From assembly GCA_016201735.1 (NCBI GenBank), contig JACQCH010000017.1:7910-71909 (forward strand): a stretch of DNA of 64,000 bases, in the 5' to 3' direction. Under the pieces are notes generated by a model. It was not told the origin of the DNA. It worked only from the letters and a program-made list of their open reading frames with translations, and did not search any database. Made by a program: the position numbers and the translations under genes. This DNA is from Candidatus Omnitrophota bacterium. GTDB lineage: Bacteria; Omnitrophota; Gorgyraeia; 1-14-0-20-64-10. Of the stretch, positions 12,481 through 54,715 are shown piece by piece (within the stretch, counting starts at the first letter, position 1; each line of letters opens with the position of its first letter).

Positions 12481-12483
12481 GGA

Positions 12484-16965: not shown

Positions 16966-16987
16966 TTCCTCCAGCCCTTTTAACTCA

Positions 16988-17458: not shown

Positions 17459-17581
17459 TTTTCAGTTAATCTAACCTACACACCACTCCATCGAAGGGCT
17501 CTTACGCGCCCTCCGTTACAGAGTATACCCGTTCCATCACTACGGCGACAAGGCGGGTTGGACAATGCACAAAAGCACATT

Positions 17582-18787: not shown

Positions 18788-18807
18788 CCCTGATTTCCTT
18801 ATTCATC

Positions 18808-21012: not shown

Positions 21013-21018
21013 CGGCTT

Positions 21019-23203: not shown

Positions 23204-23218
23204 CTTAAAAGACTCCCC

Positions 23219-35797: not shown

Positions 35798-36232
35798 CTA
35801 TCTCCGTCGCAAAAGATTCCAGGCGATCAGTACCGCTCCGATCGTGATGCAGCTGTCGGCCACGTTAAAAACGGGCCAGATCCGGAAATCCAGGAAGTCG
35901 ATCACCCCTCCGACCCGGACCCGGTCGATCAGGTTCCCGACCGCCCCTCCGAAGATCAACCCCAGCGCAAGGTTGTTCCATCGGCTGCTTCCCTGCCCCC
36001 GGACGGCGGAAAAGAGCAGTCCCACGACCACCGCCGTCGTCGCCAGGGCGATCGGGAAACTGTAGCCGCTGAACAATCCGAAGGCGACCCCGGGATTGCG
36101 CAAATAGGTCAGATGAAAAACACCCGGAAGAATCGGAACCGAAGGAGAACCGGAAAGGGTTCGGACCACCAGGAACTTGGTGCCCTGATCCAGGAGGATG
36201 ATCCCGAGAGACAAAAGAAGGATTTGGGTCAA
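35798..36232 (-). CDS. lspA: lipoprotein signal peptidase II
   Basis: 144 aa; four TM, conserved NxGxAFG-like (NPGVAFGLF) and FNVAD motifs. Confidence 0.85.
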   Translation of the reverse strand: MTQILLLSLGIILLDQGTKFLVVRTLSGSPSVPILPGVFHLTYLRNPGVAFGLFSGYSFPIALATTAVVVGLLFSAVRGQGSSRWNNLALGLIFGGAVGNLIDRVRVGGVIDFLDFRIWPVFNVADSCITIGAVLIAWNLLRRR

Positions 36233-36246: not shown

Positions 36247-36666
36247 TTAGCCGCGATCTTCCGGCGGCAGCCCGGAGGAGGGAGCGACCCCGCGGCGCTT
36301 GGTCTCCTCCTTCGACTGGCAGGCGATGCAGAGACTGGCGTACGGGATCGCCGTCAGGCGCCTCCGGTTGATTGGCTTGCCGCAGGTCAAGCAGTCGCCG
36401 AACCGCTTCTCCTGCACTCGCTTCAACGCCTCATCAATTTCGTACAGGATGGACTGGGCGTTGGTGGCCAGACCGAGGGAGAATTCCCGGTCGTAGCTGT
36501 CGGTGGCGATGTCGGCCATGTGCAGGGTGTAGCCGGACAGATCCCCGGAGGCATCCCGCTGGGACTTGCTCAGGGTATCCTTCTCGATGTGCTTCATCGC
36601 CTGAAGGACCTCCTCTTTCTTCTTGAGGAGCAGTTTTTTGTATCGGTCCAGATCTTTCTTGGTCAC
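36247..36666 (-). CDS. DksA/TraR-family C4 zinc-finger transcription factor (GTG start)
   Basis: 139 aa; coiled-coil N-region, CLTCGKPI...CIACQ zinc finger; GTG start embedded in GGAGGGGCGGGGTGA motif. Confidence 0.7.
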   Translation of the reverse strand: MTKKDLDRYKKLLLKKKEEVLQAMKHIEKDTLSKSQRDASGDLSGYTLHMADIATDSYDREFSLGLATNAQSILYEIDEALKRVQEKRFGDCLTCGKPINRRRLTAIPYASLCIACQSKEETKRRGVAPSSGLPPEDRG

Positions 36667-36826
36667 CCCGCCCCTCCATGGATCGGGACGCCAAAACTGC
36701 GCTCAGGAGCACTGTGGGCGTCCCGAAAAGCTCCATGAGCTTTTATTCTCTGGGGCAACCCGGAAATTACCCTCATGCTCATCCTCCCTCCATGGCCCCA
36801 GAGAAATCCATGGAGGGGCGGGGTCA
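36663..36826 (-). promoter_or_regulatory. structured GC-rich inverted-repeat element between ileS stop and dksA start; outer arms TGACCCCGCCCCTCC / GGAGGGGCGGGGTGA pair and would sequester dksA SD + GTG
   Basis: On minus strand: ileS stop TGA is first 3 nt of 5' arm; inner stems UCUCUGGGGC/GCCCCAGAGA and GGGACGCC/GGCGUCCC; homologous element upstream of ADH at 42458..42691. Confidence 0.5.
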
Positions 36827-39694
36827 TCGTAAACCGAGAGTATACCACATGTTCACCGTTTCCACGCACCGATGGCACAGGGCCGGATGCTCCGAAGAAG
36901 CCCCTACCGAAGGCAGCCGCATCCAGCAGCGCTGGCACTTGGACCCGGCTGCCGGGCGGACATTCATCTGAAGTGCCGGGCCGGGCCCGGATCCCGGGAC
37001 AATCTCCAGTTTCGAAACGATGCAGGCCAGCTCCAACTCCGACCGGCGCTTCGTCAGAAAGTCCAACGATTCCTTATCCTGGACCAGGATCTCCAACTCC
37101 GCTTCCAGAGAATCTCCGATCTGGCCTCCCTCTCGCGCCTTCTCCAACGCCTTCATCGCCTGGTCTCTGAACTGAATCAGGCGGGCCCAGTCCGCTTCCA
37201 GCGATCGGTCCGGCGGCAGACCCGGAGAGATGGGCCAATCCTGCAGGTGCACGCTCCGGCTGCGGTTGGAGGAAACCGCACCAGGCGCCTCGGCGCTCCC
37301 GCCGCTGGGGAGCCCGAAGGCGGTCCAGGCCTCTTCCGCCGTCAGCGGAAGGATCGGGGCGATCAGGCGGATCATTGCGTCGGTCAGGATTGCCAGAACG
37401 GTTTGAATCTCCCGCCGCTGGGGATCCTTGGGGTAAAAAGTGTACAGCCGATCCTTGATCACATCGAGATAAAAGTTGGAGAGGATGCCCGTGCAGAATT
37501 CATGGATCTTCTTGACCGCCCGGTGAAACGCATATTGCTCGTAGGCATCGGTCACCTCCCGCACAAGGGCACCAAACTGCAGAAGTATCCAGCGGTTGAG
37601 CCCCTGCATCTTCTCCAGCGGGACCCGGACTTCCGAGGCCTGGAAATCGGACAGGTTGGCCAGCATGAACCGGAGGGTGTTCCGGATCTTCCGGTACACC
37701 TCGGCGGTCTGCGACAGGATCTCCGGTGAGATCCGAACATCTTCCCGATAGTCGGAGGCGGCCACCCAGAGCCGCAGGAGATCAGCCCCCAGCGAGGAGA
37801 CCACCTCCTGCGGAGCGGTGACGTTCCCCAGCGACTTCGACATCTTCCGCCCTTGGCCGTCCACGACGAACCCGTGGGTCAGCACCGCCCGGTAAGGGGC
37901 CTTCCCCTCCAGCGCCACCCCGGTGATCAGCGAAACCTGGAACCAGCCCCGGTGCTGGTCCGATCCTTCCAGGTACATGTCGGCTGGGACTGCGTGATCT
38001 TCGCGGCGCTTCAAGACGGCTTGATGACTGACCCCGGAATCAAACCAGACATCCAGGATGTCGGTTCCCGGTTTGAAATCGGATTTGCCGCATTTGCATT
38101 TCAATCCGGCGGGGAGCCACCGGCTGACCGGCTCGCTGAACCACCGGTCGCTCCCCTCCGGGTCCTTCTCGATCTCTTTCGCGAACCGGTCGATCACCCG
38201 GGAGTCCAGAATTCCTTCTCCGCAGCCAGAGCAGATCACCGCCGGGATCGGGATCCCCCAGAGCCGCTGGCGGGAGAGGCACCAGTCCGGCCGGGTCTTG
38301 ATCATGCCGGCCATCCGCTCCTTTCCCTCCGGCGGGATCCATTGAACCTGTTTCTCGACGGCGTCGAGCAGTTTCCGGCGGAGATCCTCATGCTCGACGT
38401 TCAAGAACCATTGGTCGGTCGCCCGGAAGATGATCGGGTTGTGACACCGCCAGCAGTGTGGATACTGATGTTCCTCTTCGCCGGCTTTCACGAGAGCTCC
38501 CCGTTGTTTGAGCAGTTCGATGACGGCGGGATTGGCTGTCTGAACCTGCTGGCCGTTAAATTGTGCGACTTCTTTGGGCAAGCCGACGAACTGTCCCCGT
38601 GAATCGACCGGCGCCAATACCTCCAGCCCGTATTTCTTTCCGATCGCGTAATCCTCAGCTCCGAACCCGGGCGCCGTGTGAACCAGCCCCGTCCCGTCCT
38701 CCGAGGAAACGTAATCAGCCAGAATGACTTTCCCTTCCCGCAATCCAAACGGATGCTGATAACGAAGTCCGTCAAGATCGCGACCGCGAAATCGATGAAA
38801 GATGGAGCTGGGATCTTCGGACAAACCGAGATCTTTTTGGGCCACTTCTGGCAAACGGGCCAGCGTCACCCAGATTTCATCCGGGTTAGTTCCTTTTCGC
38901 GCGACGTATTCATAATCCGGATGAATCGCCACGCCGACATTGCCCATCAATGTCCAGGGAGTGGTTGTCCAAATCACTAAATAGGCCTTCCGTGGCTGGA
39001 TTCCAAGAGGATTCATCCTAAGAGCGGCGTTCTTTTCCAATTCAAACTTCATGTAGATCGAGGGAGAGCGGTGCATCTCGTACTCCACCTCGGCCTCGGC
39101 CAGGGCGGTCTCGCAGGACCAGCACCAGTTGACCGGCTTCCGGGCCCGATACACGAAACCTTTCCCGACGAGCGTGCTCAAGACCTGCAGGGCCGCCGAC
39201 ACGTACCCCGGCTCCAGCGTCAGGTACGGATGCTCCCAATCCCCCTGAACCGCCAGCCGTTTGAACTGATCCCGCTGGATCCCGACGTATTTCATGGCGT
39301 AGGCCCGGGCCTTGCGGCGGAACTCCAGCGTGTCCACCTGATGCTTGGTAACCTTCAGCTCCTTCATCAGGGCGTACTCGATCGGCAGACCGTGGCAGTC
39401 CCAGCCGGGAATGTACGGGGCCTTCCTCCCCCGCATCCCTTTGTACCGGACGATGAAATCCTTGAGCACCTTGTTCAAGGCATGCCCGATGTGAATGTCC
39501 CCGTTGGCGTACGGCGGCCCGTCGTGGAGGACAAAGGCCGGCGCCCCCTTCCGGTGTTCCAGGAACTGGGAATAAAGTCCTTCCCGTTCCCATTGGTCCA
39601 GGATCTTCGGCTCGCTCTGAGGGAGATTTCCCTTCATCGGGAAAGAGGTCTTCGGCAGGTTCAGGGTCGATTTGTAATCGGTCACCGGATTCAC
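36824..39694 (-). CDS. ileS: isoleucyl-tRNA synthetase
   Basis: 956 aa; HIGH (PYANGDIHIGH), KMSKS, C-terminal zinc-binding Cys cluster. Confidence 0.95.
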   Translation of the reverse strand: MNPVTDYKSTLNLPKTSFPMKGNLPQSEPKILDQWEREGLYSQFLEHRKGAPAFVLHDGPPYANGDIHIGHALNKVLKDFIVRYKGMRGRKAPYIPGWDCHGLPIEYALMKELKVTKHQVDTLEFRRKARAYAMKYVGIQRDQFKRLAVQGDWEHPYLTLEPGYVSAALQVLSTLVGKGFVYRARKPVNWCWSCETALAEAEVEYEMHRSPSIYMKFELEKNAALRMNPLGIQPRKAYLVIWTTTPWTLMGNVGVAIHPDYEYVARKGTNPDEIWVTLARLPEVAQKDLGLSEDPSSIFHRFRGRDLDGLRYQHPFGLREGKVILADYVSSEDGTGLVHTAPGFGAEDYAIGKKYGLEVLAPVDSRGQFVGLPKEVAQFNGQQVQTANPAVIELLKQRGALVKAGEEEHQYPHCWRCHNPIIFRATDQWFLNVEHEDLRRKLLDAVEKQVQWIPPEGKERMAGMIKTRPDWCLSRQRLWGIPIPAVICSGCGEGILDSRVIDRFAKEIEKDPEGSDRWFSEPVSRWLPAGLKCKCGKSDFKPGTDILDVWFDSGVSHQAVLKRREDHAVPADMYLEGSDQHRGWFQVSLITGVALEGKAPYRAVLTHGFVVDGQGRKMSKSLGNVTAPQEVVSSLGADLLRLWVAASDYREDVRISPEILSQTAEVYRKIRNTLRFMLANLSDFQASEVRVPLEKMQGLNRWILLQFGALVREVTDAYEQYAFHRAVKKIHEFCTGILSNFYLDVIKDRLYTFYPKDPQRREIQTVLAILTDAMIRLIAPILPLTAEEAWTAFGLPSGGSAEAPGAVSSNRSRSVHLQDWPISPGLPPDRSLEADWARLIQFRDQAMKALEKAREGGQIGDSLEAELEILVQDKESLDFLTKRRSELELACIVSKLEIVPGSGPGPALQMNVRPAAGSKCQRCWMRLPSVGASSEHPALCHRCVETVNMWYTLGLR

Positions 39695-40509
39695 AGCTGC
39701 TCGATCAGTTGACTCACCAGATGGGTCAAGCGGGGCTTGGCCTCTTTGGCCACTCGAAGAATTTCCTCCAGCAGGGCCGGCTTCAAGGTTTCCGGGATGC
39801 AGACGTCGGTGATGCAGCTGACCCCGAAGACCCGCATCCCGCCGTGGACCGCCGTCAGCACCTCCGGCACCGTCGACATTCCGACCGCATCGGCCCCGAT
39901 CCCCCGGAGGAACCGATACTCCGCCCGGGTTTCCAGGTTCGGCCCGGTCACCGCCGCGTAAACTCCCCGGTGCAGGCGGATCCCGGCCGCCTTGGCGATC
40001 CGCTCGGCCAACCCGATCAGTTTCTGGTCGTACGGGGCAGACATATCCGGGAACCGGATCCCCAGCCGGTCGTCGTTGGGACCGGTCAACGGATTGACTC
40101 CCATCAAGTTGATCTGGTCGGCAATCACCATCAGGTCCCCGGCGGTAAATTTCGGATTCATCCCGCCGGCGGCGTTGGAGACGATCAGAACCTCCGCCCC
40201 TAGGGCCCGCATCACCCGAACCGGATAGGTCACCTGCGCCAGGGAATATCCTTCGTAGAAATGGAACCGCCCCTCCATGACGACCACCGGTTTTGCTCCG
40301 ATCCGGCCGAAGACCAGCTGCCCCTTGTGCCCTTCCACCGTCGAGCGGGGGAAATGGGGGATCTCCTCGTAGGAGATGGGGTGAGCGTCATCAATCTTTT
40401 CTCCCAACCCCCCCAAACCGGTCCCCAAGATCACCCCGATCCGGGGCGTATCGGAAACCTTCGCCTGGATGAACCGAATTGTCTCTTGAAGCTGATCCCA
40501 AATCGGCAT
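39691..40509 (-). CDS. purine nucleoside phosphorylase / MTA phosphorylase family (PNP/MTAP family)
   Basis: 272 aa; PNP-UDP family motifs (GVILGTGLGG, VGMSTVPEV). Confidence 0.75.
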   Translation of the reverse strand: MPIWDQLQETIRFIQAKVSDTPRIGVILGTGLGGLGEKIDDAHPISYEEIPHFPRSTVEGHKGQLVFGRIGAKPVVVMEGRFHFYEGYSLAQVTYPVRVMRALGAEVLIVSNAAGGMNPKFTAGDLMVIADQINLMGVNPLTGPNDDRLGIRFPDMSAPYDQKLIGLAERIAKAAGIRLHRGVYAAVTGPNLETRAEYRFLRGIGADAVGMSTVPEVLTAVHGGMRVFGVSCITDVCIPETLKPALLEEILRVAKEAKPRLTHLVSQLIEQL

Positions 40510-40513
40510 CGGA

Positions 40514-40816
40514 TTATCGCAGCCGCAGACTCAAATCCACCAGGGTCCGCACCAGGAAATGCTGGATCGCCTGCAGAAGAAGCAGGGCCACGATCGGCGT
40601 GATGTCGAGGAACCCGATCGACGGGATCAGGCGCCGGAGGGGCTCCAAAACCGGGTCCGTCGCCCGCTGCAGGAATTGAACCACCGGGTTAAACGGGTCG
40701 GGGCTGACCCAACTGATCAGCACCCGGATGATGAGGACCCAAGTGTAGATGGTAAGCGTGGCGTTCACCAACTGCGCCAACGCAGAGACGAGATTCCCGA
40801 TCACAAACATCCTCAC
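40514..40816 (-). CDS. yggT: YggT family membrane protein
   Basis: 100 aa; two TM, conserved position after proC in yggS-proC-yggT operon. Confidence 0.7.
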   Translation of the reverse strand: MRMFVIGNLVSALAQLVNATLTIYTWVLIIRVLISWVSPDPFNPVVQFLQRATDPVLEPLRRLIPSIGFLDITPIVALLLLQAIQHFLVRTLVDLSLRLR

Positions 40817-41631
40817 CTCCCTAGCTTCTTACTTCTTTGAGCGGCTGCCTGAATTCCGGCCCGAATTATTTTCCCCAGCCCGGCCCGAGCATACACCTTA
40901 AACGCCGCTTCCGTGGTTCCCCCCTTGGAGGTCACCCGGGCCCGCAGAAGTTTCGGCTCCTCGCCGGATTTCGCCAGCTTGGCGGCTCCTTCGGCGGTGG
41001 CCAGAACTAACTGCCGCGCCGCCTGTTTCGACAGCCCCAAGTGGACTCCCGCCTCAATCATCTGCTCCATCAGAAAAAAGAAATAGGCCGGCCCGGAGCC
41101 GCTGACCGCCGTGACCCCGTTCATCCAGCTTTCCGGAACCTCCAGCACCTCCCCCACTCCTTGAAAGATCCGTTTCACTATCTTGACCATCGAGGGGATC
41201 GCCGCCCGGCCGGGGGCGATCGCCGTCACACCGGCCCCCACCAACGCCGGGGTGTTCGGCATCACCCGGACCACCGGGACGGCCTTGCCGGTTGAACCAG
41301 CGCGGCCGATCCGTTTCTCGATCCAACGGGTTGAAATCCCTGCCGCAATCGAAATTAGAAGCGGCCGTTTGCTAAGATGCAGACGGATCTCCTCGAGAAC
41401 CCCCTACATCTGCTGGGGCTTGACCGCCAAGAGGATGAGTTGTGATTTCTCGGCCAGATCGGAATTGGACCGGGCTCGCCGAATTCCAAAGACCCGGCTC
41501 AATTTCTTAAGCTTCTCCGAATCCGAATCCCAGACAAGGATCCGGCCCGGCGCAACGAACCGGCTCGCCAGCATCCCCCGGATCAGGGCGGACCCCATGT
41601 TCCCGCATCCGATCACCCCGATCGTTTTCAT
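40813..41631 (-). pseudogene. proC: pyrroline-5-carboxylate reductase ProC interrupted by a single in-frame TAG (41404..41406)
   Basis: N-fragment ORF 41404..41631 (MKTIGVIGCGNMGSAL...AVKPQQM*) and C-fragment 40813..41274 are in the same frame; the 129 nt between read through as GVLEEIRLHLSKRPLLISIAAGISTRWIEKRIGRAGSTGKAVP without further stops. Confidence 0.7.
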
Positions 41632-42320
41632 TGAAAGATCGCCGTCCCGATCCGCACCATCGTCGCTCCTTCCTCCACCGCCACCTCCAAGTCCTGGCTC
41701 ATCCCCATGGACAAATCCAGCGAGGGGTCGATCCCATCCCGAAGCCGGCGCAATTGCCGGAAAACCGGTCGGGCCGATTCCGGATCGTCGGCAAATGGGG
41801 CCATCGTCATGAAGCCCGACAATTTCAGATTCTTCGATTTCAAGATCGCCGCCGCCAGCACCCTTGCTTCGTCCGGCTTACAGCCATGCTTGGCCGCCTC
41901 TCCCGACACATTCACCTGAACCAGCAGCTCCAACCCCCGCTCGGGCTGAGCCGGTCGAAGCCCGACGGCCCGACCCAGCGCCTCGACCAGCTCCAGCGAG
42001 TCGACCGAGTGAACCACGTCGAACAGCTCCACCGCGGCCCTCACCTTGTTCCGCTGAAGGTGCCCGATCAGGTGCCAGCGGACTTCGCGCCCGATCGCCG
42101 GCTGTTTCTGCTGGGCTTCCTGGACCCGGTTCTCGCCGATCTCCCGCACCCCGCAGGCAATCGCCTCCCGGATCCTCTCGACCGGAACTCCTTTGGTCAC
42201 ACCGATGAGACGCACGCCGGCAGGGTCTCGGCCTTTAGACCGGGCCGCTGCCGCAATCCGTTGCCGGATCTGCTCCAGGTTCGCGTCGATCACCCCGCCC
42301 CTCCGGAGTTCCGCTTCCAT
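41628..42320 (-). CDS. yggS: PLP homeostasis protein YggS (alanine racemase N-terminal fold)
   Basis: 230 aa; LIGVTKGVP...IGHLQRNK motifs; ATGA overlap with proC start. Confidence 0.85.
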   Translation of the reverse strand: MEAELRRGGVIDANLEQIRQRIAAAARSKGRDPAGVRLIGVTKGVPVERIREAIACGVREIGENRVQEAQQKQPAIGREVRWHLIGHLQRNKVRAAVELFDVVHSVDSLELVEALGRAVGLRPAQPERGLELLVQVNVSGEAAKHGCKPDEARVLAAAILKSKNLKLSGFMTMAPFADDPESARPVFRQLRRLRDGIDPSLDLSMGMSQDLEVAVEEGATMVRIGTAIFQ

Positions 42321-42457
42321 CCCTGCAGGGATGGAAGCGCTGTGCCGAAGGCACAGATGCCCTCGGCTGTCTCTCGCTTTAAACGATCCCTCTTTTCATG
42401 AACCTGTGCATCTCCTCAGACCCTGAAGAATCCACCCCCCTGCCGAGGGCATACTCC

Positions 42458-42691
42458 GGAGGGGCGGGGTCATGAAATTGCTATTACAGCACCCCGCTTC
42501 CACCTTGTCAACCGACGGAACGGCGTGATAAATTAGACGGCGTGACCCCGCCCCTCCTTTGGGCTCTCTGGCACAGTTGGAGGGTGGTCAACCGGGAGGG
42601 GTCAGCGAGTCACCTGTGCCAGAGAGAGAAATCTTACGAAAGATTTCTGGGACGCCTGAAAGGCGTCCCTACCAAAGGAGGGGCGGGGTGA
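42458..42691 (+). promoter_or_regulatory. three-arm GC-rich inverted-repeat leader (GGAGGGGCGGGGTCA / TGACCCCGCCCCTCC / GGAGGGGCGGGGTGA) with 18-codon uORF (42472..42528), preceding ADH GTG start
   Basis: Arm 1 42458..42472 carries SD+ATG of uORF MKLLLQHPASTLSTDGTA; arm 2 42543..42557 is perfectly complementary to arm 1 and 14/15 to arm 3 (42677..42691) which contains SD and GTG of the ADH; inner stems CTCTCTGGCACAG/CTGTGCCAGAGAG and GGGACGCC/GGCGTCCC. Confidence 0.5.
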
Positions 42692-43752
42692 AGGCAGCCA
42701 TCTATCGGGGGCCGAATGATGTCCGGGTGGAAGAGGTGCCGGTGCCGCCGGTGGGACCCGGCGAGGTACTGCTTCAGGTACAGGCTTGCGGCGTCTGTGG
42801 GACGGATCTAAAGAAGATCGCGCAGGGGGATCTGCCGGCTCCCCGCATCTTCGGCCACGAGGTGGCCGGCCGGGTGGTGGCCGTCGGATCGGGCGTCGGG
42901 CAATGGCGTAGCGATGACCGGGTCGTCTTCTTCCACCACATCCCCTGCCGATCCTGCGATCTCTGCCGCGTTCAGGCCTATGCCCAGTGCCCGCAGTACC
43001 TTCGGGTGGGGACCACTGCCGGCTTTGAGCCGGCCGGCGGCGGATTCGCCGAGTACGTCAAGGTGATGGATTGGATCGCGCGTGACGGTCTAGTCAAGAT
43101 CCCCAACGGGGTCACGGACGAAGAGGCGATTTTCGTGGAACCGGTCAACACCTGCTTGAAAGGAATTCAAAAGGCTGAGATCATTCCCGGTCGGCCGGTG
43201 CTGATCCTCGGCTCCGGACCGGTGGGGCTGATCTTGCTTCAGCTGGCCCGGTTGGCCGGCGGGGTGGTCTACGTCGCCGATCCCATTCCGGAACGCCTGG
43301 AGGCGGCCCGCCGGCTGGGGGCGGCCGATACGCACGACATCTCGGGACATTCCCTCCTGGATTGGGTCCGCCGGCGAATTGATCCGCGCGGGGCAGAGGT
43401 CGCCCTCGTCGCCGCGGCATCGGTGCAGGCCATTTCCTCCGCGCTGGAGGCGGTGCGGCCAGCCGGTCGAGTGGTCCTCTTCGCGCAAACTCGACTCGGC
43501 GAGACGGCCGCGCTGGACGTCGGGCAGATCGGCAAACTGGAGAAGGAACTGGTGGGGAGTTACAGCGCATCGATTGATCTGCAGGAGGAGGCGGCCCGGC
43601 TGGTCTTTACTCGAGAGATTCAAGTCGCTCCGCTCATCTCTCATCGGTTCGGGCTGAATCAGATCCGCGAGGCCCTCGGTGTAGCGATGCGGCCCTCCGC
43701 CCAATCTCTGAAGGTCATCGTCCAGCCAGGGTTGAACGGATCCACGCCATGA
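42688..43752 (+). CDS. zinc-dependent alcohol dehydrogenase (MDR superfamily, sorbitol/threonine DH-like), GTG start
   Basis: VKAAIYRGPNDVRVEEVPVPPVGPGEVLLQV..., GHE motif, structural zinc cysteines, GxGxxG; upstream 43 codons of ORF 42559..43752 are leader, not coding. Confidence 0.8.
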   Translation: MKAAIYRGPNDVRVEEVPVPPVGPGEVLLQVQACGVCGTDLKKIAQGDLPAPRIFGHEVAGRVVAVGSGVGQWRSDDRVVFFHHIPCRSCDLCRVQAYAQCPQYLRVGTTAGFEPAGGGFAEYVKVMDWIARDGLVKIPNGVTDEEAIFVEPVNTCLKGIQKAEIIPGRPVLILGSGPVGLILLQLARLAGGVVYVADPIPERLEAARRLGAADTHDISGHSLLDWVRRRIDPRGAEVALVAAASVQAISSALEAVRPAGRVVLFAQTRLGETAALDVGQIGKLEKELVGSYSASIDLQEEAARLVFTREIQVAPLISHRFGLNQIREALGVAMRPSAQSLKVIVQPGLNGSTP

Positions 43753-44780
43753 AGGCCGCGGTCCTGCACGGAAAAGAGGATGTCCGGTTAGAGGAAGTGC
43801 CCCTGCCCGCCCCCGGCCCCGGTGAGATCTTGATCAAGGTCCGCTCGGCCCTGACCTGCGGCACGGACCTGAAGGTGTTCCGCAACGGATCGCATGCCCG
43901 GATGATCAAACCGCCGGCCCTGTTCGGCCACGAATTCGCCGGAACCATCGAGAAGATCGGCTCCGGCGTGACCGGCTGGCGGCAGGGTCAGCGGGTCGTC
44001 GCCGCCAATTCTGCCCCGTGCCGCTCTTGCTTCTACTGCCGGCGGCATCAGCCGAACCTGTGCGAGGATCTGCTGTTCGTCAACGGCGCCTATGCGGAGT
44101 ATCTCTTGCTCCCCGCGCGAATTGTGCGAGAGAATCTGCTGGAGATCCCAGAGCGTCTTGGCTTTCAGGCCGCGGCACTCACGGAACCGCTGGCCAGCAC
44201 CTTACGCGGATTCCAGGCGGTGCATCCCGGCCCGGAAGAAACCGTGGTGATCCTCGGAGCCGGCCCGGTGGGCCTGATGTTCGCGCAGTTGGCCCGCCGA
44301 GCGGGCTGCCGGATCATCCTGCTCGGTAAAGGAAGCCGCCGGCTGGAAGCTGCCCAGCAATGCGGCGCGGATCGGGCGCTCGACCTTGGCCAACTCAGCG
44401 ACCCAATTCAGGCGATCCGGCAGGTCACTCCCGAAGGGAAAGGAGCCGATGTCGTCATCGAGGCGGTGGGGCGGCCGCAGGCCTGGAGCCAGGCCCTCTC
44501 GATGGTCCGGCCGGGAGGCCGGGTGCTTTTCTTTGGAGGCTGCCCCCCCGGCACAGAAATCCCCCTGGATACCGGCCGGATGCATTACGAGGAGCTCACC
44601 CTCCTGTCGGTCTTCCATCACACGCCCGAGGCGATCCGCCAAGCCCTGGGCCTTCTGGCCGACGGATCCATCCGGGCCGATCTGCTGATCACCGGCGATG
44701 CGCCCCTGGGCGAGCTGCCCGCGATCCTTCGGCGGATGTTAACCGACCAGGACGCCGTCAAGACGGCGATCCTTCCATGA
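43749..44780 (+). CDS. zinc-dependent alcohol dehydrogenase paralog
   Basis: 343 aa; MKAAVLHGKEDVRLEEVPLPAPGPGEILIKV; ATGA overlap with upstream ADH. Confidence 0.8.
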   Translation: MKAAVLHGKEDVRLEEVPLPAPGPGEILIKVRSALTCGTDLKVFRNGSHARMIKPPALFGHEFAGTIEKIGSGVTGWRQGQRVVAANSAPCRSCFYCRRHQPNLCEDLLFVNGAYAEYLLLPARIVRENLLEIPERLGFQAAALTEPLASTLRGFQAVHPGPEETVVILGAGPVGLMFAQLARRAGCRIILLGKGSRRLEAAQQCGADRALDLGQLSDPIQAIRQVTPEGKGADVVIEAVGRPQAWSQALSMVRPGGRVLFFGGCPPGTEIPLDTGRMHYEELTLLSVFHHTPEAIRQALGLLADGSIRADLLITGDAPLGELPAILRRMLTDQDAVKTAILP

Positions 44781-44784
44781 GGAG

Positions 44785-45705
44785 TTGAAGATGCGGATCT
44801 GCTCCCTCCTCCCCACCGCCACCGAGATGCTGTACGCCCTGGGGCTAAGCCGTTCCGTCGTCGCCCGAAGCCAGCACTGCAGTTATCCACCCCAGGTCCG
44901 GGCGAAGCCCGTCGTCGTGACGAGCCGCGTCAAGAAGATCGCCAAGCAGGACAGTTTCGCCATTCACCAGGCGGTCCTCAAACTCCAGCAGGAGGGAGTC
45001 CACCAATTCCAGATCGATCTGCCCGCCTTAAAGCGTCTCAAGCCGGACTTGGTGATCACCCAGAATCTCTGCTCCGTCTGCGCCGCTCCTCATCCGGAGG
45101 TTTCCGCCGTTCTGCAGCATCTCTCCCCTCGCCCCCGGCTGATCTCCATCAACTCCCAGCGGCTCGATGAGATCTTTACCGAGATCCGGAAGCTTGGAGA
45201 AATGACCCATCGGGAAAAAGCAGCAATCCGCTTGACGCACCAGCTTCAACAGCGGATCGACCGGGTCCGGCAATTGGTCTCTCGAACCTCCTACCGGCCC
45301 CGTGCCTGGGTCTGCGAGTGGCTGGAACCGCTGATGGCGGCCGGCCATTGGATCCCGGAGATGGTGGAGGTGGCCGGCGGCGTCGATGGGCTGGGGGTGA
45401 AAGGAAAGGATTCCATCTGGCTGAATTGGGAGCAGGTGCGCCGCTACGATCCGGAGGTGATCGTGGTGATGCCCTGCAGTTACTCAATCTCCCAAACCCT
45501 GCGGGAGAAGAAGCGGCTCACCCAGCGCCCCGGCTGGAAATCTTTATCCGCGGTGAAGCAAGGAAGGGTGTTTGCCCTGGAAGGAAGCTTCTTCCATCAC
45601 GCCGGGCCTCGCCTCGTCGACGGGATCGAGCTCCTGGCCCACCTGTTCCACCCGACCCAAGTCCCCGGAAATTCCCTCTGCCGTCATTACCGCGCATTGA
45701 CCTAA
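44785..45705 (+). CDS. class III periplasmic-binding-protein-fold protein (BtuF/FecB-like ABC substrate-binding domain)
   Basis: 306 aa; PDLVITQNLCSVC and EVIVVMPC motifs typical of cobalamin/siderophore binding proteins; no obvious signal peptide. Confidence 0.55.
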   Translation: MKMRICSLLPTATEMLYALGLSRSVVARSQHCSYPPQVRAKPVVVTSRVKKIAKQDSFAIHQAVLKLQQEGVHQFQIDLPALKRLKPDLVITQNLCSVCAAPHPEVSAVLQHLSPRPRLISINSQRLDEIFTEIRKLGEMTHREKAAIRLTHQLQQRIDRVRQLVSRTSYRPRAWVCEWLEPLMAAGHWIPEMVEVAGGVDGLGVKGKDSIWLNWEQVRRYDPEVIVVMPCSYSISQTLREKKRLTQRPGWKSLSAVKQGRVFALEGSFFHHAGPRLVDGIELLAHLFHPTQVPGNSLCRHYRALT

Positions 45706-46373
45706 TTGGGCTCCAATCCCTTGGCAAGCGTTTCACGCCACTCGTTGAAAAACCCCTGCAGCTCCTGGAAAGGAATCGGTTCCAAGAGCCACAGCATTTC
45801 GGGCATTTCCTCTTTGAAGGTTTTGATCCGCTCCAACGCTACCGCAAGCCAATAAGAATCAAAACCGGGATCCTTTCTTTTGGCATTCTCCATCAGCTCG
45901 TTTGGCTGAAAGCCCCCCTTCTTGACCAAAACATAGAGGTCGATGAAATCTCTCAAGGCCGCTCGGCCAAACAAAGCCAACAGTTTATTGGAAGCGATGT
46001 CCACCAGACTGTCCACTTTCAGGCGCGGATATTCCGGAAACTCCTTGACCGGCTCAAACCGAAAAGGGGCGTCCTGGGCCAGTTGGATCAACGTGGACTC
46101 GCCGGATCGCTCAACGAATAGTTCGACGAACGAATGGAGACCCCTCTGGCGCTCAACGGAAATCCCTTTGGCTCTAAGCACTCCCTCTAGTCGACGACTG
46201 AACGGCTCAACCAGCTCCTCCGTCACCGTGAAAAAGTCCAGATCCTGACTCTTCCGATGGTGAAGGTAAAACTGCGCCAAGGCGGTCCCACCCGTCAGAT
46301 AAAATTGTTCGCTTTCCTGGATGGATGGGAAATTTCGAAGGATAAAATCTTGAATCTTACTGATGACCTGCAA
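45702..46373 (-). CDS. nucleotidyltransferase AbiEii/AbiGii-family toxin (type IV TA / abortive infection, DUF1814)
   Basis: 223 aa; FYLTGGTALAQFYLHHRKSQDLDFF hallmark; lower GC than flanking chromosome. Confidence 0.75.
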   Translation of the reverse strand: MQVISKIQDFILRNFPSIQESEQFYLTGGTALAQFYLHHRKSQDLDFFTVTEELVEPFSRRLEGVLRAKGISVERQRGLHSFVELFVERSGESTLIQLAQDAPFRFEPVKEFPEYPRLKVDSLVDIASNKLLALFGRAALRDFIDLYVLVKKGGFQPNELMENAKRKDPGFDSYWLAVALERIKTFKEEMPEMLWLLEPIPFQELQGFFNEWRETLAKGLEPN

Positions 46374-46623
46374 GGAAATCTTCCCAAAACATCCGCACCT
46401 CCGTTGGAAGGAAGGGGTTCACTCTTCGAATCGACTCGCGCAGCCGATTCCACGGAAGCGTCTTGAGCAAATCCCGGACATCTCCCAGCCGGCCCCGAGT
46501 CAAGACCTGCTGGACGAGAAGATCCGCCTGGGGCGGATCGTCGAGATCGATCCGCGCTCCTTCCCGAAGGAACCAGAAGAGGCGTTTGTGCGGCTGATAA
46601 TCCCGTGGCATCTTAAAGTTCAC
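46357..46623 (-). CDS. putative cognate partner/antitoxin of AbiEii (short, unclassified)
   Basis: 88 aa, overlaps AbiEii start by 17 nt, co-directional; no recognisable wHTH so assignment weak; antisense ORF 46363..46713 is an alternative. Confidence 0.3.
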   Translation of the reverse strand: MNFKMPRDYQPHKRLFWFLREGARIDLDDPPQADLLVQQVLTRGRLGDVRDLLKTLPWNRLRESIRRVNPFLPTEVRMFWEDFLAGHQ

Positions 46624-46669
46624 ACTCCCATGTCGGAGTGTATCACATTCGAGGAAAGACAGGAAGGCG

Positions 46670-49600
46670 TTACGCGAAGATCAGGAGGGCCTCGCCGAAG
46701 TCCCCCCCCTTGAAGAGGCGATGGAGCACCACGATCGAGCCCGGCTCCAACAGCCCCTGCTTCTGTAAATATTGAAGCAGCCCCGCAGTTACTTTAGAAG
46801 CGGTCTGATCATTGACTTGAATCAGCACTTGATCCCGCCGAATTGAAACATTATCGCCCCCAATCACAATCGCCGCTTCCTCCAGAGTCTTCGCCCATCT
46901 AATCAACTTCTTGTCAATCGCATCGTGAAGCCCCGGGGTCACCTGGCCCAACCACCCTTGCTGCACATAGACCGGAACCTCCGTGCCAACGAATGCCTCT
47001 TCAAGCACTGCCGGCGGAACCATCCGGGCGAGGCCCTCCCGATATCCAGCATTTTCTGCCAGCTTCGAAAGGCCGTCGAATTTATCCGCGACATCCACCA
47101 CCCGTTGCGGATCGATCAGATATAGCAGGGTATCGGCAATGACCCGCCGGGCTATGAATTCGTTCAACATATCCCGGGCCTCCTCCGCCGTCGGCGGCGC
47201 CGCCAGCGCCGGCACCGGCGCTTCGGTCTTCTTCACCTCCTCCATCCCGGCGCGCAAGCCAAACTCCCTTGCCACGTCTGGAGCAAACCTTAGTACCTCC
47301 TCTTCAGAGAGCCGAGTAAGACTCCCATTTCTCATAATACGGGCATATTCGGGTAAGAAGCTATTCTGCGGATTGAGATATTTAACGTAGACATCGCCCC
47401 TTACCGTGAATGCGCTCACATTGTCCAGAGAAATGTGCCGCCCCAAATCCAAGAAGTGGACTTCCAAATACCCATCGTCCCCCGGTTTAGGTTTACCAAG
47501 TCGGAATTCCATGCCGGGGCGATTTTCAGGTGCGTCCATGTATGCAGTCTTGAGATGGGATTCCATCGCCGCACGCTTCATGATGCCCAACTCCTGCCTC
47601 ATCTGAGCATCAAGAGATTCCTCGGCAACTTCGGTTATGCCTTTCCTTGTAATACGCAAATAGACGGGAGTATAAGCTCGTTTGGGATCAAGACGTCGCA
47701 CATAAACGTCTCCGCCAAACGACGTAAAACCCGTCACTTTCGTCAACCTGTTTTCCTTCCCAATATCCTTTTGGTGCACATAAAGAAGCTCTGCGGATTC
47801 TACCAAACTAAATGCGATTCCAAGACGGGTGTCCGGATGAACTCTATTTATCTGACGATCCAATTCGTTATAAGACATGCGAGTGCCCAATGGGGCGATG
47901 ACATCCCCACGCAGAAGGCCTACCGTCGGCGTTACTTCTGCCACGTCATCACTATCAACGAGATACTCCCTACTCTCAACCCTAAGTAAAACCTTCCTGC
48001 CGTCGGAACTCAGGCCTCGAACCACATCCCCATTGACAAGAAATCCTTTCGGCACACGCTCTTTGAATCCGATATCTCCCCGGCTGTTTGGATGTATCCA
48101 CTCGATGACATTGACATATCGACCCTTAGGATCTACTACATCAACCATCTTTGTCCCACCATCTCTTAATCTATGTGCCCTCAATCCGTACAAAGGATGC
48201 CCCTTGAGCTCTTGCTTGAGGCCACTGAACAGGTCAAATGCGGAACAGAGCACGTCAGCAGCATCGCGGGCCTGTTCGTCTGTCACGACAGGTTTGAACC
48301 CATCAAACGAAATAGGCACTGGAGTGAGAACCTGAGGAGGAACCCTGGCTGGTTCCGGGGTATGTGGCTGTGGAGTAGGCGTTGTTAACGCATCGTAACC
48401 GATCTTTCCAACTACCCCAGCAGCAGTCCCTAATACTGCCCCCACTGTCCCCACCAGAAGGTCCCGCCTCGTTAAGCCTCTTCCCTTTTTTCCCTCCTCC
48501 AGCCCGGCGGCGGGAGAAGGTGGTTCTTGCTCCCATTTAATCTCCGCTTCCTTAAAATCCATTTTGGCGACAAGCTGCGCTAAAACTGCTTTAAGGACCT
48601 TTTGAATATCTGGGGCAGCTTCCCATCGAGCGAGCCCCCATTCCTCCTTTGAGAAATCGTTGAGGATTGGATTGAATTCCTCGCCCAGCTCGCGACGGTG
48701 GTCAGGTGTAATCTTAAATTGATCCCAATTCATACCGATAAAAAGCCCCAGATCAAATGCGGATATGCCTTTCTCTTGAAATTTCTTTAACAATTTTTTC
48801 TCTGGCTCCTCCAGCCCGGCGGAAGTCTTCTTCTCAAATGGACCCGAAAGGAGTTTGATTTCAAGCTCTAGCTCATCCGGAAACGCGGGGGGAAGTTCAT
48901 TGACTTGAAATTGATAATCGGACAACCCGTCAGCGAGCAGGCGTTCCCTTACGCCATCCAGAACTGTGGGAACATTGGACCACCCCTGAATCGCCACAGG
49001 AACTTTAACCGCATCTCCCCTCTCCAAATCCAAAGCCCTCTTCGGAAAACCGACCAGATTGATGGTTGCCGCTTTACTCACGCTCTTAAGAATTCCTTCA
49101 GCCTTCTGCCATGCCTGTTGTGGAGACAGCCCCCCCTCCAACTCGGCGGCGCCCGGTAGTCGATCGTTGTAGAGAATCATGGCCAGAGCAAGGGCATCTT
49201 GCCTCACGTCAACAATTCCACGGAGATCCAGTTCCAATCCTCTCCGTGTGAAAGCATACGACAGCGTTACTGAATCGCCCTTGATATCCTCCGTGGGTTT
49301 CTTGATGTCTAGATAGAGTAATGCGCCATCCGGACCTACGGATCCGTGGAGAGGTATTGTGTCTGACATCGTTATTAGATCCGCCATCTCTCCTATTCCC
49401 CTAAAAACGGCTTCAATCCTCTTTATGTTGCCCTTGACAACGGGGTCGTCAGCGCGCGTGGGATCTGAAGCTAGTTGAGCTCTAAGGACCTCAAGCCGGG
49501 ACGCAGCCTGAGTGATTGCCAAAGCCGTTCTTTCCAGCCCGTTGAGCTGGCGATTCATGAACTCGTAGGAGCGGTGATTGACTTGCGGGGAAAGTCTCTC

Positions 49601-52600
49601 CCTCTCTTTGCTAAGTGCAGTTTTATCCGATTCCTCCCGAATTGACCGGATCGTTTTCTCCAGCTCATTGAGCCGTCCGTTCAATCGCCCTGCAAGATTT
49701 GTGCGTAATCTTTCCATGTCGGCTAGAAGATTCCGCCCTTCTTGAAGTAAACGTCCAGCATCCTCATGGGTCATATTCTCTCCGGACAAATCCTGCCACA
49801 AGGCATTCGCCCTCGGAGACAACTTCTTGGCTTCGTCCGCCCCCGTTATGATCTCATTCGACGAATGGATCTGTGCCATGAGAATTTGAAGGAATTCCCG
49901 CAGGTCCGGATTAACAGGACGAGGCAGATCAGAAACTTGGCGAAGTTCCTCTATTTCGCGCCGAGGAAGGAAAACCCGTGCCCCAGATCGGCCCTCTTCT
50001 CGTATCAACAATCCTTTCTCAGGAATAGATTGGAATGCAACGTGCTTTCTCGAGATATGTTGAGGAGCTTCAACTCCCAGGAGTCCCGGTTTACTGCTCT
50101 CGCCTCTTCCAAAACCAAACTTCCCTTCAGAATCAAAAGGGATCATCCCTTCCCCTATTTTTCTCGGATCTGCGAACCAGAAGCCGCCCTTTCCATCCCA
50201 GGCGAGAATTCCCTGGATTAAACCGTTCGGTTCAATAGGGTTTTTATCTATACGATCTGTTACGACATAGACCGTGATTGCCCCAGGTTCTCTCAAGGCG
50301 TTCGGGGAAATAAGAATTCCTCCACCCGGAACTCCAAGAAGCTTCCTCTCTTCAACCCGATTTTTGTAATCGAACATGAGTGAGCTTCCCGTCACTCTAG
50401 ATTCCACTTTCTCGACCTTTCGATAGGTCTTCTGGACCAAACCGTCCAAGTCCAAGTCGGCAAGCTCCCTGGTCTCTTCCAGCCCAGCGAGATTGTTCTG
50501 GACAAACCAGACGTCCGATTCCACCTCCGCCGTGGTGATCTGCGTCCCATCCAGGAACCTCACCTCCGTCTCGCCTCCCTCCATCGGGACTGAATAGCTG
50601 ACAATCCGGACCGCGTCGTCGGGTCCCCTCACCCGATCCCCGCCGCGCAAATTCCTCAGATCTGGCCCCGTCAGCGCCTTCCACTGCTCTAACTCCTCCA
50701 TCCCGGCGGCGGTACGAGTACCCCAGGACCGCAACCCTTCCCGGACAGCGTAGAGGAACGTAAGGAATTCTGATGATTTCCGAGAAGGCAGGTTCTGTCT
50801 TTCTTTACCTATCTCCCGCAGGATTAATCCGTTGATCTTTAAGAGAACCGGATCGGTACTGAGATCTACGACTTGGCGATCGATATAATGTTTAAAAAGG
50901 AGGTCGCCTACTTCCCTCGCCAGATCCTCCCTTGCAGAATCCTGGACGAGACCTCCGAGAGAACGAGACGCTACCAACCGGTCTACAACATGATTCCGGA
51001 GTGCCTCTCGATCGGAGGTCCATTGCAATCCTCTCCGGAGTGACTCCATTTGGTTATCATCAAGAAAAACATCACCGCGAATGGGCTGCAGGCGGATTGC
51101 ATCTCCATCCTGCGTGATCTTCATTACCTTTGTCTTCTTAACTGTAAGAGTGCTTCCACTCTCCTTAAAAGGTTGGCGTTCCTCCTCTCCGGATTCATTT
51201 GTGGATACAAGATCAAAGCCGCTGCCGTTCCACTGAAGGGTAACCATCTGCATGCCCGGTATCTCGATCATCAGACCCCTCGTCAACTGGGCCGCAGCAA
51301 CTCCGGCAACTGGGATTCGCAGTCCACCCTTAGGAACCTGCGCCTGCTTAACAACAGTCCCATACTGCAACACGGTTTTCTTCGAAGCCGTCCGGAACCA
51401 TGCCGCGAATTCCTCTCCAGCGGCACCAAACAACTTCCGCTCAGGAGCAGTCCCTTCTGCTTGAATCCCAATTTCTTCAATCTGTGATTGAATCGCCTTA
51501 GGGGTACTGAGGATAAGAACGGGTTTCCCACTTTCTCCATCGGGCTCATGCCTAACCATGAATAATCTGGGTATCTTATAATCCCTACCACTATTCAGGC
51601 TCCTTTTCTTGCCCTTGGAATTTGAAAGCACAACCTTTCTATCTTTACCCTCGGCAAGTTTAAAGCGCGCCTCCTTCCCGGGCTGGCGCGCGGCAAGATT
51701 CAAGGGCCCTGACAGAACGACGGGCATCCTTACCTCTTCTCCCGACTTGAATCGAAATAGGATGCGCTCGCCAGGTTGCAGGCGGATGGGCCCCTCAACA
51801 ACGCCAAACGAACTTTGGTCGGTTATCTTTCCAGAAAGGATGAGCTCTAACAACTTATAGCGGCTCACCACGAACCGCACCTGCCCGTTCTCTCCCGGAA
51901 CCTTCATCTCCGCCAGTTGCCCAGGGTTAACACGGTGTAAAGCCGCAAGGTATAAATCGGCGGTCTTGTCTCGATAAACGGCCCCGTCAACCGGTTTCCT
52001 TTTTTTACGAAGTTTTTGGATATCCGCGATAACTTGCTCCGCCACCTTGCGCATATCACCGTTGCCCAGGCCGGACTTCGCAAGGCGGTCCAACGCCTTC
52101 TGCACATCTCCGCTCTCAGCTTTACCCAGCAAGGTCTTAACCACCGCCGCGCCAGCGAGTTCGGCAGCCAGTTCTTGAGTCATTATCCCTCCAGATCCGC
52201 CAATACGTGAATCGGCCCACTCTCTGGAGAAATTCTTTGCCGCTGCAAAAGGATGATGTCGATTCGACAAAGCAATAATCAAGGCGACTTTTTGCCATGA
52301 AAGCTGGCTCATGATCTGCGAATAAGCTCTTTCCACTCGTGCCTTTTCTTCTGGAGTCACTCGAGTGCCCGTCGTGAGTTTGAATTGAAGGACCTGGTAA
52401 GCTCCAATAACAGCCATCTCTCTTTTTAACCTCCCCCACGCTGCCTCGAGCTCCGCATCGGTTGGCTGCACGAATCTTCTGAGAACTTTCAAGGAGGGGG
52501 CCTTAAATGTTCCCCCTTCCATGCCGGCGGCGGGGGCGGAGTTCGGGGCGGCGCCGAGGGCTTTTTCGAGTGCTTCGAGACCGGCTTCCTGCTGTTTGAT

Positions 52601-52720
52601 TTCATTGGGACGCAGGGCGAGGGCGGAATTAGGCAAGGCAAGGCATAGACTTAGGAAAAGGGCCAAAATTCTGGGATAAAAAAATAGTTTCTGACTCATG
52701 AAATTTCCTTTGTACCTCAA
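46670..52720 (-). CDS. giant (2016 aa) orphan secreted protein with internal Tat-like/TM segment; no recognisable catalytic domain
   Basis: Sec signal MSQKLFFYPRILALFLSLCLALPNSALA|LRP; long mixed alpha/beta region; coiled coil ~aa 1100-1210; GRGLTRRDLLVGTVGAVLGTAAGVVGKIG then Pro-rich linker (~aa 1520-1570); C-terminal ~450 aa with internal duplications (GDVYVRRLDPKRAYTPVYLRITRKG / GDVYVKYLNPQNSFLPEYARIMRNG); DNA ~50% GC vs ~65% surroundings. Confidence 0.7.
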   Translation of the reverse strand: MRYKGNFMSQKLFFYPRILALFLSLCLALPNSALALRPNEIKQQEAGLEALEKALGAAPNSAPAAGMEGGTFKAPSLKVLRRFVQPTDAELEAAWGRLKREMAVIGAYQVLQFKLTTGTRVTPEEKARVERAYSQIMSQLSWQKVALIIALSNRHHPFAAAKNFSREWADSRIGGSGGIMTQELAAELAGAAVVKTLLGKAESGDVQKALDRLAKSGLGNGDMRKVAEQVIADIQKLRKKRKPVDGAVYRDKTADLYLAALHRVNPGQLAEMKVPGENGQVRFVVSRYKLLELILSGKITDQSSFGVVEGPIRLQPGERILFRFKSGEEVRMPVVLSGPLNLAARQPGKEARFKLAEGKDRKVVLSNSKGKKRSLNSGRDYKIPRLFMVRHEPDGESGKPVLILSTPKAIQSQIEEIGIQAEGTAPERKLFGAAGEEFAAWFRTASKKTVLQYGTVVKQAQVPKGGLRIPVAGVAAAQLTRGLMIEIPGMQMVTLQWNGSGFDLVSTNESGEEERQPFKESGSTLTVKKTKVMKITQDGDAIRLQPIRGDVFLDDNQMESLRRGLQWTSDREALRNHVVDRLVASRSLGGLVQDSAREDLAREVGDLLFKHYIDRQVVDLSTDPVLLKINGLILREIGKERQNLPSRKSSEFLTFLYAVREGLRSWGTRTAAGMEELEQWKALTGPDLRNLRGGDRVRGPDDAVRIVSYSVPMEGGETEVRFLDGTQITTAEVESDVWFVQNNLAGLEETRELADLDLDGLVQKTYRKVEKVESRVTGSSLMFDYKNRVEERKLLGVPGGGILISPNALREPGAITVYVVTDRIDKNPIEPNGLIQGILAWDGKGGFWFADPRKIGEGMIPFDSEGKFGFGRGESSKPGLLGVEAPQHISRKHVAFQSIPEKGLLIREEGRSGARVFLPRREIEELRQVSDLPRPVNPDLREFLQILMAQIHSSNEIITGADEAKKLSPRANALWQDLSGENMTHEDAGRLLQEGRNLLADMERLRTNLAGRLNGRLNELEKTIRSIREESDKTALSKERERLSPQVNHRSYEFMNRQLNGLERTALAITQAASRLEVLRAQLASDPTRADDPVVKGNIKRIEAVFRGIGEMADLITMSDTIPLHGSVGPDGALLYLDIKKPTEDIKGDSVTLSYAFTRRGLELDLRGIVDVRQDALALAMILYNDRLPGAAELEGGLSPQQAWQKAEGILKSVSKAATINLVGFPKRALDLERGDAVKVPVAIQGWSNVPTVLDGVRERLLADGLSDYQFQVNELPPAFPDELELEIKLLSGPFEKKTSAGLEEPEKKLLKKFQEKGISAFDLGLFIGMNWDQFKITPDHRRELGEEFNPILNDFSKEEWGLARWEAAPDIQKVLKAVLAQLVAKMDFKEAEIKWEQEPPSPAAGLEEGKKGRGLTRRDLLVGTVGAVLGTAAGVVGKIGYDALTTPTPQPHTPEPARVPPQVLTPVPISFDGFKPVVTDEQARDAADVLCSAFDLFSGLKQELKGHPLYGLRAHRLRDGGTKMVDVVDPKGRYVNVIEWIHPNSRGDIGFKERVPKGFLVNGDVVRGLSSDGRKVLLRVESREYLVDSDDVAEVTPTVGLLRGDVIAPLGTRMSYNELDRQINRVHPDTRLGIAFSLVESAELLYVHQKDIGKENRLTKVTGFTSFGGDVYVRRLDPKRAYTPVYLRITRKGITEVAEESLDAQMRQELGIMKRAAMESHLKTAYMDAPENRPGMEFRLGKPKPGDDGYLEVHFLDLGRHISLDNVSAFTVRGDVYVKYLNPQNSFLPEYARIMRNGSLTRLSEEEVLRFAPDVAREFGLRAGMEEVKKTEAPVPALAAPPTAEEARDMLNEFIARRVIADTLLYLIDPQRVVDVADKFDGLSKLAENAGYREGLARMVPPAVLEEAFVGTEVPVYVQQGWLGQVTPGLHDAIDKKLIRWAKTLEEAAIVIGGDNVSIRRDQVLIQVNDQTASKVTAGLLQYLQKQGLLEPGSIVVLHRLFKGGDFGEALLIFA

Positions 52721-52931
52721 GTATATCCTCCCGATGGGGCCGTGTCAATATCCTGAGAAAAGTCCTCTGTAACTCCTTTGTTCGCAGGGGGTTGTTTAAA
52801 CAAGATATGCGTTACCGCTAACTAAAAGCCAATTTCACGCCTAGTTCCGTAACTCCGCAGAAACGCTGTAACGTATTGATAGACAGAGGATAGAAATACG
52901 GTGAATGAGGCACCCGTTTTCTTGAGCGTCT

Positions 52932-53009
52932 CCGTTCGTCCTGAGCTTGTGGAAGGACGAACATTTGTACTCGGTTCCGTTCATGGTTCGACAAGCTCAC
53001 CATAAACGG
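52932..53009. repeat. nested-palindrome REP-like element upstream of giant gene
   Basis: CCGTTCGTCCTGAGCTTGTGGAAGGACGAAC ... CCGTTCATGGTTCGACAAGCTCACCATAAACGG; family shared with 1078..1110 and 35721..35790. Confidence 0.55.
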
Positions 53010-53045
53010 TTTGCGGAGCTAAGGAAGCAGGCGTGAGCCAATTTT

Positions 53046-54272: not shown

Positions 54273-54330
54273 ATGTCTATTTTATACATCAATCGAAATT
54301 AGTCAAGTCTATTTTACATACCTATGAAAA
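54273..54330. repeat. AT-rich imperfect direct repeat (TCTATTTTATACATC / TCTATTTTACATACC) at right edge of low-GC island
   Basis: Seen directly immediately upstream of the AAA ATPase gene at the composition boundary. Confidence 0.3.
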
Positions 54331-54343
54331 ACAGCCATACCTC

Positions 54344-54715
54344 CTACTGATCTTCCAGTGCCCCTTCGAGGCGGCCGACCAGAAGGTCCACCCGGAGGCC
54401 GTGGGCCGAGCGCAGATGGATCTCGAAATCGGTACCGGAGGGCTCCACTCCCAACAATCCACCCAAAGGAGGCTTGGCATCGTACTCCTCCCAGATCGAT
54501 ATCCCCTTCACATGGGAAATGGTCAGCCGGCACGGGACCCAGTCCTGCCGGGTTTTCCGGAAAAGGCCGGCTCCTTTGAGCGAGTCGGCGGGCGGCCGGG
54601 CGGTTTCCAGAATAAAAACCGGGCCCGGCTCCCAACAGCAATTGGCCCGGTCAAAATCAGATTCCGCAAGAATTTCTCCGACCTTCTTTAATTGTTCAAG
54701 ATTTTGGAATTCCAT
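54344..54715 (-). CDS. hypothetical protein
   Basis: 123 aa, high GC, no recognisable motif. Confidence 0.3.
   Translation of the reverse strand: MEFQNLEQLKKVGEILAESDFDRANCCWEPGPVFILETARPPADSLKGAGLFRKTRQDWVPCRLTISHVKGISIWEEYDAKPPLGGLLGVEPSGTDFEIHLRSAHGLRVDLLVGRLEGALEDQ

Follow-up and report, generated by a model that had tools for sequence, protein, structure and literature searches.

Pyrroline-5-carboxylate reductase (ProC) carries out the last step of proline synthesis. Proteins of the ProC family are recognised by a two-domain architecture (PF03807 and PF14748), by an N-terminus of the GxGxxG type (GCGNMG in the window protein), and by invariant residues involved in catalysis and dimerisation. 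A TAG codon within a reading frame, followed by an intact continuation of that frame, is known from the UAG recoding systems, i.e., pyrrolysine decoding, amber suppressor tRNAs, and the TAG-reassigned codes of phages and bacteria. A gene can also be split in the annotation of a MAG by a single-base consensus error or a minority SNP, which is seen as a single substitution between sequences that match perfectly everywhere else.

The window described here (64,000 nucleotides; contig JACQCH010000017.1 of the NCBI GenBank assembly GCA_016201735.1, positions 7,910 to 71,909 of the forward strand) is from a Candidatus Omnitrophota bacterium and contains a proC gene with a TAG within its frame. This TAG is really present in the deposited sequence. 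It is peculiar to the deposited contig, and the population carries an intact proC with glutamate at residue 76 (Glu76).

The proC Gene

In the window, proC is on the minus strand (41631..40813) and comprises 272 codons and a terminal TGA, with one internal TAG. The single in-frame TAG had been pointed out in a preceding sequence-only reading of this DNA and was confirmed by translation of 41631..40813: it is codon 76 (41406..41404, minus strand), and in the translated frame it separates LLAVKPQQM from GVLEEIRLH. In the NCBI MAG of Candidatus Omnitrophica bacterium, proC is annotated as two fragments, both on the minus strand: an N-terminal fragment of 75 amino acids (41404..41631; MBI3615522.1, “NAD(P)-binding domain-containing protein”) and a C-terminal fragment of 150 amino acids with an internal GTG start (40813..41265; MBI3615521.1, HY211_03275, “hypothetical protein”). 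The N-terminal 75 residues of the window ProC are those of MBI3615522.1, and the C-terminal fragment has 99% identity to MBI3615521.1; both are encoded on a MAG contig of 90,586 bp.

When the stop was masked, Pfam identified PF03807 (F420_oxidored/NADP-binding) in ProC residues 3-98 (E = 1.1e-18) and PF14748 (P5CR_dimer) in residues 167-270, the latter over the full profile (1-105; E = 7.4e-33). The NAD(P)H-binding Rossmann domain has the glycine-rich motif GVIGCGNMG, which is near-invariant across homologues, and the C-terminal dimerisation and catalytic domain has kept the invariant motifs SGSGPAY and S-GGTT. The TAG is positioned inside the Rossmann domain; thus, neither of the two ProC fragments could be an active enzyme alone.

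The remainder of the gene is well preserved. In an alignment with 30-31 homologues, all of the 37 family-invariant columns were kept in the window ProC, on both sides of the stop, and neither the translation nor the homologue alignment revealed a frameshift or a second lesion in proC, the only change being a single substitution. The closest full-length ProC proteins, all from Omnitrophica-type metagenomic contigs, are 72-78% identical to the window ProC. As a member of the ProC family, this gene is ordinary, and the operon in which it lies is conserved.

A six-residue insertion, GRAGST, was observed at ProC residues 109-114 (41290..41307, minus strand), in the loop that precedes the conserved motif VPVVRVMPNTP. 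The 30 homologues in the alignment all lack this insertion. It is also present in the independent Logan alleles described below, and is therefore a real, lineage-specific feature rather than an artefact of assembly.

The Operon and the Other Genes for Proline Synthesis

Upstream of proC is yggS (41628..42320, minus strand), which encodes a YggS-family PLP-binding protein (TIGR00044, 174.6 bits; PF01168) and is intact. Downstream is yggT (40514..40816, minus strand), which encodes a YGGT family membrane protein (PF02325), is also intact, and was called in the two Logan contigs L001 and L002 too. The same operon contains an intact gene for purine-nucleoside phosphorylase (PNP; 39691..40509, minus strand; NF006054, 373 bits), and the last large gene of the conserved block is ileS (36824..39694, minus strand; Pfam tRNA-synt_1, Anticodon_1 and zf-FPG_IleRS). 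The yggS-proC-yggT-PNP-ileS block is syntenic in three related Omnitrophica contigs, i.e., L006 (JACPXU010000124.1), L007 (Logan SRR22387852) and an ENA contig, all of which have an uninterrupted proC and the gene order yggS-proC-yggT-PNP-ileS-dksA-like.

The profile and Pfam matches for yggS (TIGR00044) and yggT (PF02325) bear out the earlier description of the yggS-proC-yggT operon as otherwise intact. The ATGA-type overlaps that had been reported for these genes hold for the yggS stop and the proC start, which share the ATGA at 41631..41628; at the border of proC and yggT, depending on which yggT start is chosen, there is either a GTGA overlap or a distance of 2 nt. As had also been stated, proA and proB are intact: each is full-length in comparison with its family profile. 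For proA (glutamate-5-semialdehyde dehydrogenase; 1261..2523, minus strand), the match covers positions 2-417 of the 418 in NF001221 (614 bits), and for proB (glutamate 5-kinase; 3763..4881, minus strand), it covers positions 1-363 of the 363 in TIGR01027 (381 bits).

Small Inverted-Repeat Elements and Other Features of the Window

Three small elements of 145-185 bp were observed in the window, at 36662..36827, 42289..42473 and 42542..42692. They are bounded by terminal inverted repeats of 18-21 nt, which are 95-100% complementary and have the core ACCCCGCCCCTCC / GGAGGGGCGGGGT, and their architecture is MITE- or REP-like. Exact matches to the 13-mer core number 6 in the window, compared with 0.62 expected. 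The elements at 36662..36827 and 42289..42473 bracket the ileS-PNP-yggT-proC-yggS block, and one of them overlaps the annotated start codon of yggS. The same organism has a fourth element immediately beyond the window (L003, 9636..9816), and no such element was found in the loci of the relatives. One of the small-element repeats lies 32 nt before the end of the contigs L001 and L002.

The annotated ATG of yggS, at 42320, sits within the terminal inverted repeat of one of these elements. The family profile aligns with YggS from residue 12, and there is an in-frame GTG at codon 10 (42293). The true start of yggS is probably about nine codons downstream of the annotated ATG, and may be this GTG.

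Between yggS and a cluster of DDAH-like, astD-like and astA genes there is a block of about 12 kb (42559..54715); in the relatives L006 and L007, yggS is only 1-2.5 kb from that cluster. The block includes two genes of the Zn-dependent alcohol dehydrogenase family, one gene for a periplasmic binding protein, an AbiEii toxin gene (45702..46373), a gene for an AAA_14/DUF4143 ATPase (53046..54272), and an ORF of 2,016 residues (46670..52720) without a Pfam match. It may be an inserted island. Exact look-up of the 408-amino acid AAA_14/DUF4143 protein returned no contig, which is probably due to a different choice of start codon or to a contig break.

A large cluster resembling type IV pilus and type II secretion systems occupies 9843..24286 and encodes a secretin, PilM, N_methyl pseudopilins and a T2SSF platform protein. 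It has three consecutive T2SSE ATPase genes (19288..21012, 21019..22755 and 23219..24286), the first two of which have N-termini of the MshEN type (c-di-GMP-binding), and a gene for a GGDEF/GAF/HAMP protein (24300..25730) adjoins them. Elsewhere in the window, the overlapping ORFs 26511..28283 and 27611..29311 were considered as a possible frameshift and rejected, as they correspond to rodA with a long upstream stop-free extension and to the adjoining PBP2 gene.

Codon 76 in Homologues and Relatives

Most of the 30 aligned homologues have Glu at the position of the stop, and a small number have Asp, Gly, Ala or Leu instead. Each of the 29 full-length homologues has a sense residue at codon 76, and TAG was found in none of the 30. 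The relatives L006 and L007 both read GAG at this codon, and TAG is one transversion from GAG.

Codon 76 in Independent Assemblies

Exact look-ups in a collection of 15 billion proteins were carried out for both fragments and for the seven proteins that are obtained when the TAG is reverted by a single base (to E, Q, K, Y, W, L or S). Among these seven revertant ProC proteins of 272 amino acids, the Glu version alone exists (P0121), on two Logan contigs. The source of the 75- and 150-amino acid fragments in the collection is the NCBI MAG only; exact look-up of these fragments gave no encoding contig, and the 75-amino acid fragment is not obtained from any of the Logan, ENA or JGI assemblies.

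The two contigs with the Glu version are L001 (SRR12113409_5548; 3,260 bp), which aligns with 42336..39077 of the window, and L002 (SRR12113410_66361; 3,250 bp), which aligns with 42336..39087; both alignments are ungapped and have one mismatch. In each case, this sole mismatch is at position 41406, where the coding strand has G in these contigs and T in the window, such that the codon and its neighbours read ATG GAG GGG in L001 and L002 and ATG TAG GGG in the window. The base change is thus G to T on the coding strand and C to A on the window strand, and the 31-mer context of the variable site contains CAGATGTAGGGGG. Whereas the window does not have one uninterrupted ORF for both ProC domains, L001 and L002 do.

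The two runs yielded three more Logan contigs that are identical to the window where they overlap it, i.e., L003 (1..4931), L004 (19232..25079) and L005 (19232..23710), which together cover about 10.8 kb of other window sequence. When each window position is counted once, the comparison of the MAG with the run-level assemblies thus covers about 14.0 kb (21.8 kb as pairwise alignments) and shows a single difference, which implies that the MAG and the two runs represent one population that is essentially clonal. When the genome and JGI metagenome contig collections were scanned for the exact DNA with K at the variable base, neither allele was found, which means that the MAG itself is not part of these collections. 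In the whole protein collection, the neighbouring PNP protein occurs on the L001 and L002 contigs only, and this suggests that the MAG was built from SRR12113409 and SRR12113410 themselves. Judging by the accession series, the MAG and these two runs may be part of PRJNA640378, a link on which none of the conclusions depends. In that project, many Omnitrophica MAGs were obtained from groundwater, using per-filter MEGAHIT assemblies that were scaffolded with IDBA-UD [He et al. 2021; PMC7906910].

In Logan, each SRA run is assembled separately, k-mers that are seen once are dropped, and variants are collapsed onto the major allele [PMC12424806]. Consequently, GAG is the multiply-supported, dominant path in both runs. 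The sequence-only reading had held that reads with a sense codon at this position would speak against the stop, and such a codon has effectively been obtained, in the form of GAG in two read-derived, per-run assemblies.

TAG as a Terminator in the Window

Approximately 12 of the 57 crude ORF calls in the window are terminated by TAG. In lspA (35798..36232), which had been put forward as an example of a genuine TAG stop, the TAG is indeed at the end of the family profile, and the same is true of pilB (21019..22755) and the DDAH-like gene (54733..55686). A six-frame scan for stops with long open stretches on either side, read against the domain annotations, identified no second gene in the 64 kb that is split by a single in-frame stop. 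No tRNA was found by ARAGORN in the window or in the seven fetched loci, no Rfam element was found in the window at gathering thresholds, and there are no pyrrolysine (Pyl) or selenocysteine (Sel) genes among the annotated genes of the window. A genome-wide change of code was considered and rejected in view of the TAG codons at profile ends and the absence of another split gene.

Origin of the Stop Codon

The T at 41406 is probably a miscall of one base, confined to the deposited MAG contig. On this reading, the organism has GAG (Glu76) at this codon, and its proC encodes an ordinary NADPH-dependent pyrroline-5-carboxylate reductase of full length and shares a transcript with yggS and yggT; the pathway via proB, proA and proC to proline is complete, with no need for read-through of a stop codon. 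The T would seem to have arisen from an error in sequencing, from damage to the library or from an error in assembly, rather than from a real subpopulation. A technical origin is favoured because the approximately 14 kb compared contain no second polymorphic site, because both run-level assemblies have G, and because a change of G to T beside a run of G belongs to a familiar class of artefacts (the variable site abuts a G5 run). Changes of G to T, or C to A, are the classic library artefact of oxidative damage (8-oxoG). A miscall is also supported by the otherwise undamaged state of proC, by the conservation of the operon, and by Glu being the majority residue in this column.

There are also points on the other side. 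MEGAHIT-type assemblers normally output the better-covered path; if the MAG came from such an assembler, the sample that was used would have contained more than a few reads with T, which would fit a real variant as well. In addition, only about 4% of random substitutions would generate a stop, an argument that carries little weight, as the site was chosen for being a stop.

Possibly, though less probably, the T is a real nonsense allele that has not become fixed. A subpopulation, a filter or a time point would then carry proC E76*, and the assembler would have emitted TAG, with GAG dominating both Logan runs; the E76* allele would be a null for the enzyme, and the resulting proline auxotrophy would be supported by the community. 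That the T stands in the deposited consensus is in keeping with such an allele, the assembler behind this consensus being of a kind that usually chooses the path with the higher coverage. So is the single lesion in an otherwise pristine proC, as expected for a very young mutation, and the GAG and TAG versions, which are otherwise identical over 3.2 kb, are compatible with a recent, segregating SNP. Against such an allele, GAG is the major path in both of the independent run-level assemblies, the 75-amino acid fragment comes from no Logan, ENA or JGI assembly, and neither allele was found when the genome and JGI metagenome collections were scanned for exact matches. Furthermore, about 14 kb without another polymorphism indicate a population with very little standing variation, and when the sole difference is a null mutation in a gene of core biosynthesis, an artefact is the better explanation. 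If the allele were real, part of this groundwater Omnitrophica population would have lost proC recently, and proline auxotrophs would live beside a prototrophic majority that is otherwise identical to them at the level of bases.

It is very unlikely that proC is a fixed pseudogene, in which case the last step of proline synthesis would have been lost and proline would be imported or made by an alternative reductase. This is how the deposited genome reads at face value, with its stop and the two fragments annotated by NCBI. However, an intact GAG allele was assembled from both SRR12113409 and SRR12113410, i.e., from the same clonal population; proC has no secondary lesions, frameshifts or lost invariant residues; proA and proB are intact; and the structure of the operon has been kept as in the relatives. 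The loss of proC from a genome that retains proA and proB had been regarded as metabolically odd, and such a loss is not supported, GAG being present in two per-run assemblies that agree with the window at every other base.

Programmed recoding, in which UAG would be read through, or decoded by a suppressor tRNA(CUA), a pyrrolysine-type system or an altered code, to give full-length ProC, is extremely improbable: the frame simply runs on intact past the TAG and positive evidence is absent, whereas TAG ends pilB, lspA and the DDAH-like gene at their profile ends and about 12 of 57 ORF calls, proC is the only gene in the window with an in-frame TAG, this TAG is missing in the 30 homologues and in the other assemblies of the same population, and no tRNA (window and fetched loci), Rfam element (window) or Pyl or Sel gene (annotated window genes) was seen.

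The sequence-only reading had left three options for the stop side by side without choosing between them. Two of these survive, i.e., an error of sequencing or assembly and a recent nonsense allele that is not fixed. The third, read-through or suppression, found no support, as TAG is a normal terminator here, is not conserved at this position in relatives, has no other in-frame occurrence and is not accompanied by a tRNA in the window.

Implications

If the MAG were read at face value, the final step of proline biosynthesis would be recorded as absent, with proC in two pieces, one of which is “hypothetical”. Metabolic reconstructions of this genome should include ProC, and the TAG in proC provides no basis for claims of stop-codon recoding or of proline auxotrophy. 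The main value of the case is in quality control: when an in-frame stop in a MAG is suspect and reads are not at hand, exact look-up of all the single-base revertant proteins in large collections of assemblies is a cheap test that can be applied generally.

Comparison with Known Systems

The window protein shares with the ProC family the two-domain architecture, the GCGNMG N-terminus and the invariant catalytic and dimerisation residues. In comparison with the ProC of relatives and of the sister assemblies, which have GAG, the deposited copy alone has TAG. The resemblance to UAG recoding systems, an in-frame TAG followed by an intact frame, is superficial: unlike in those systems, the TAG in proC is neither conserved nor recurrent, the window uses TAG as a terminator, and no associated tRNA or genes were seen. 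What proC shares with the single-base consensus errors and minority SNPs of MAGs is a lone substitution between sequences that otherwise match perfectly, and a gene split in annotation. The anomaly in proC is thus of a kind that is well known from MAGs, a problem in the consensus at a single base.
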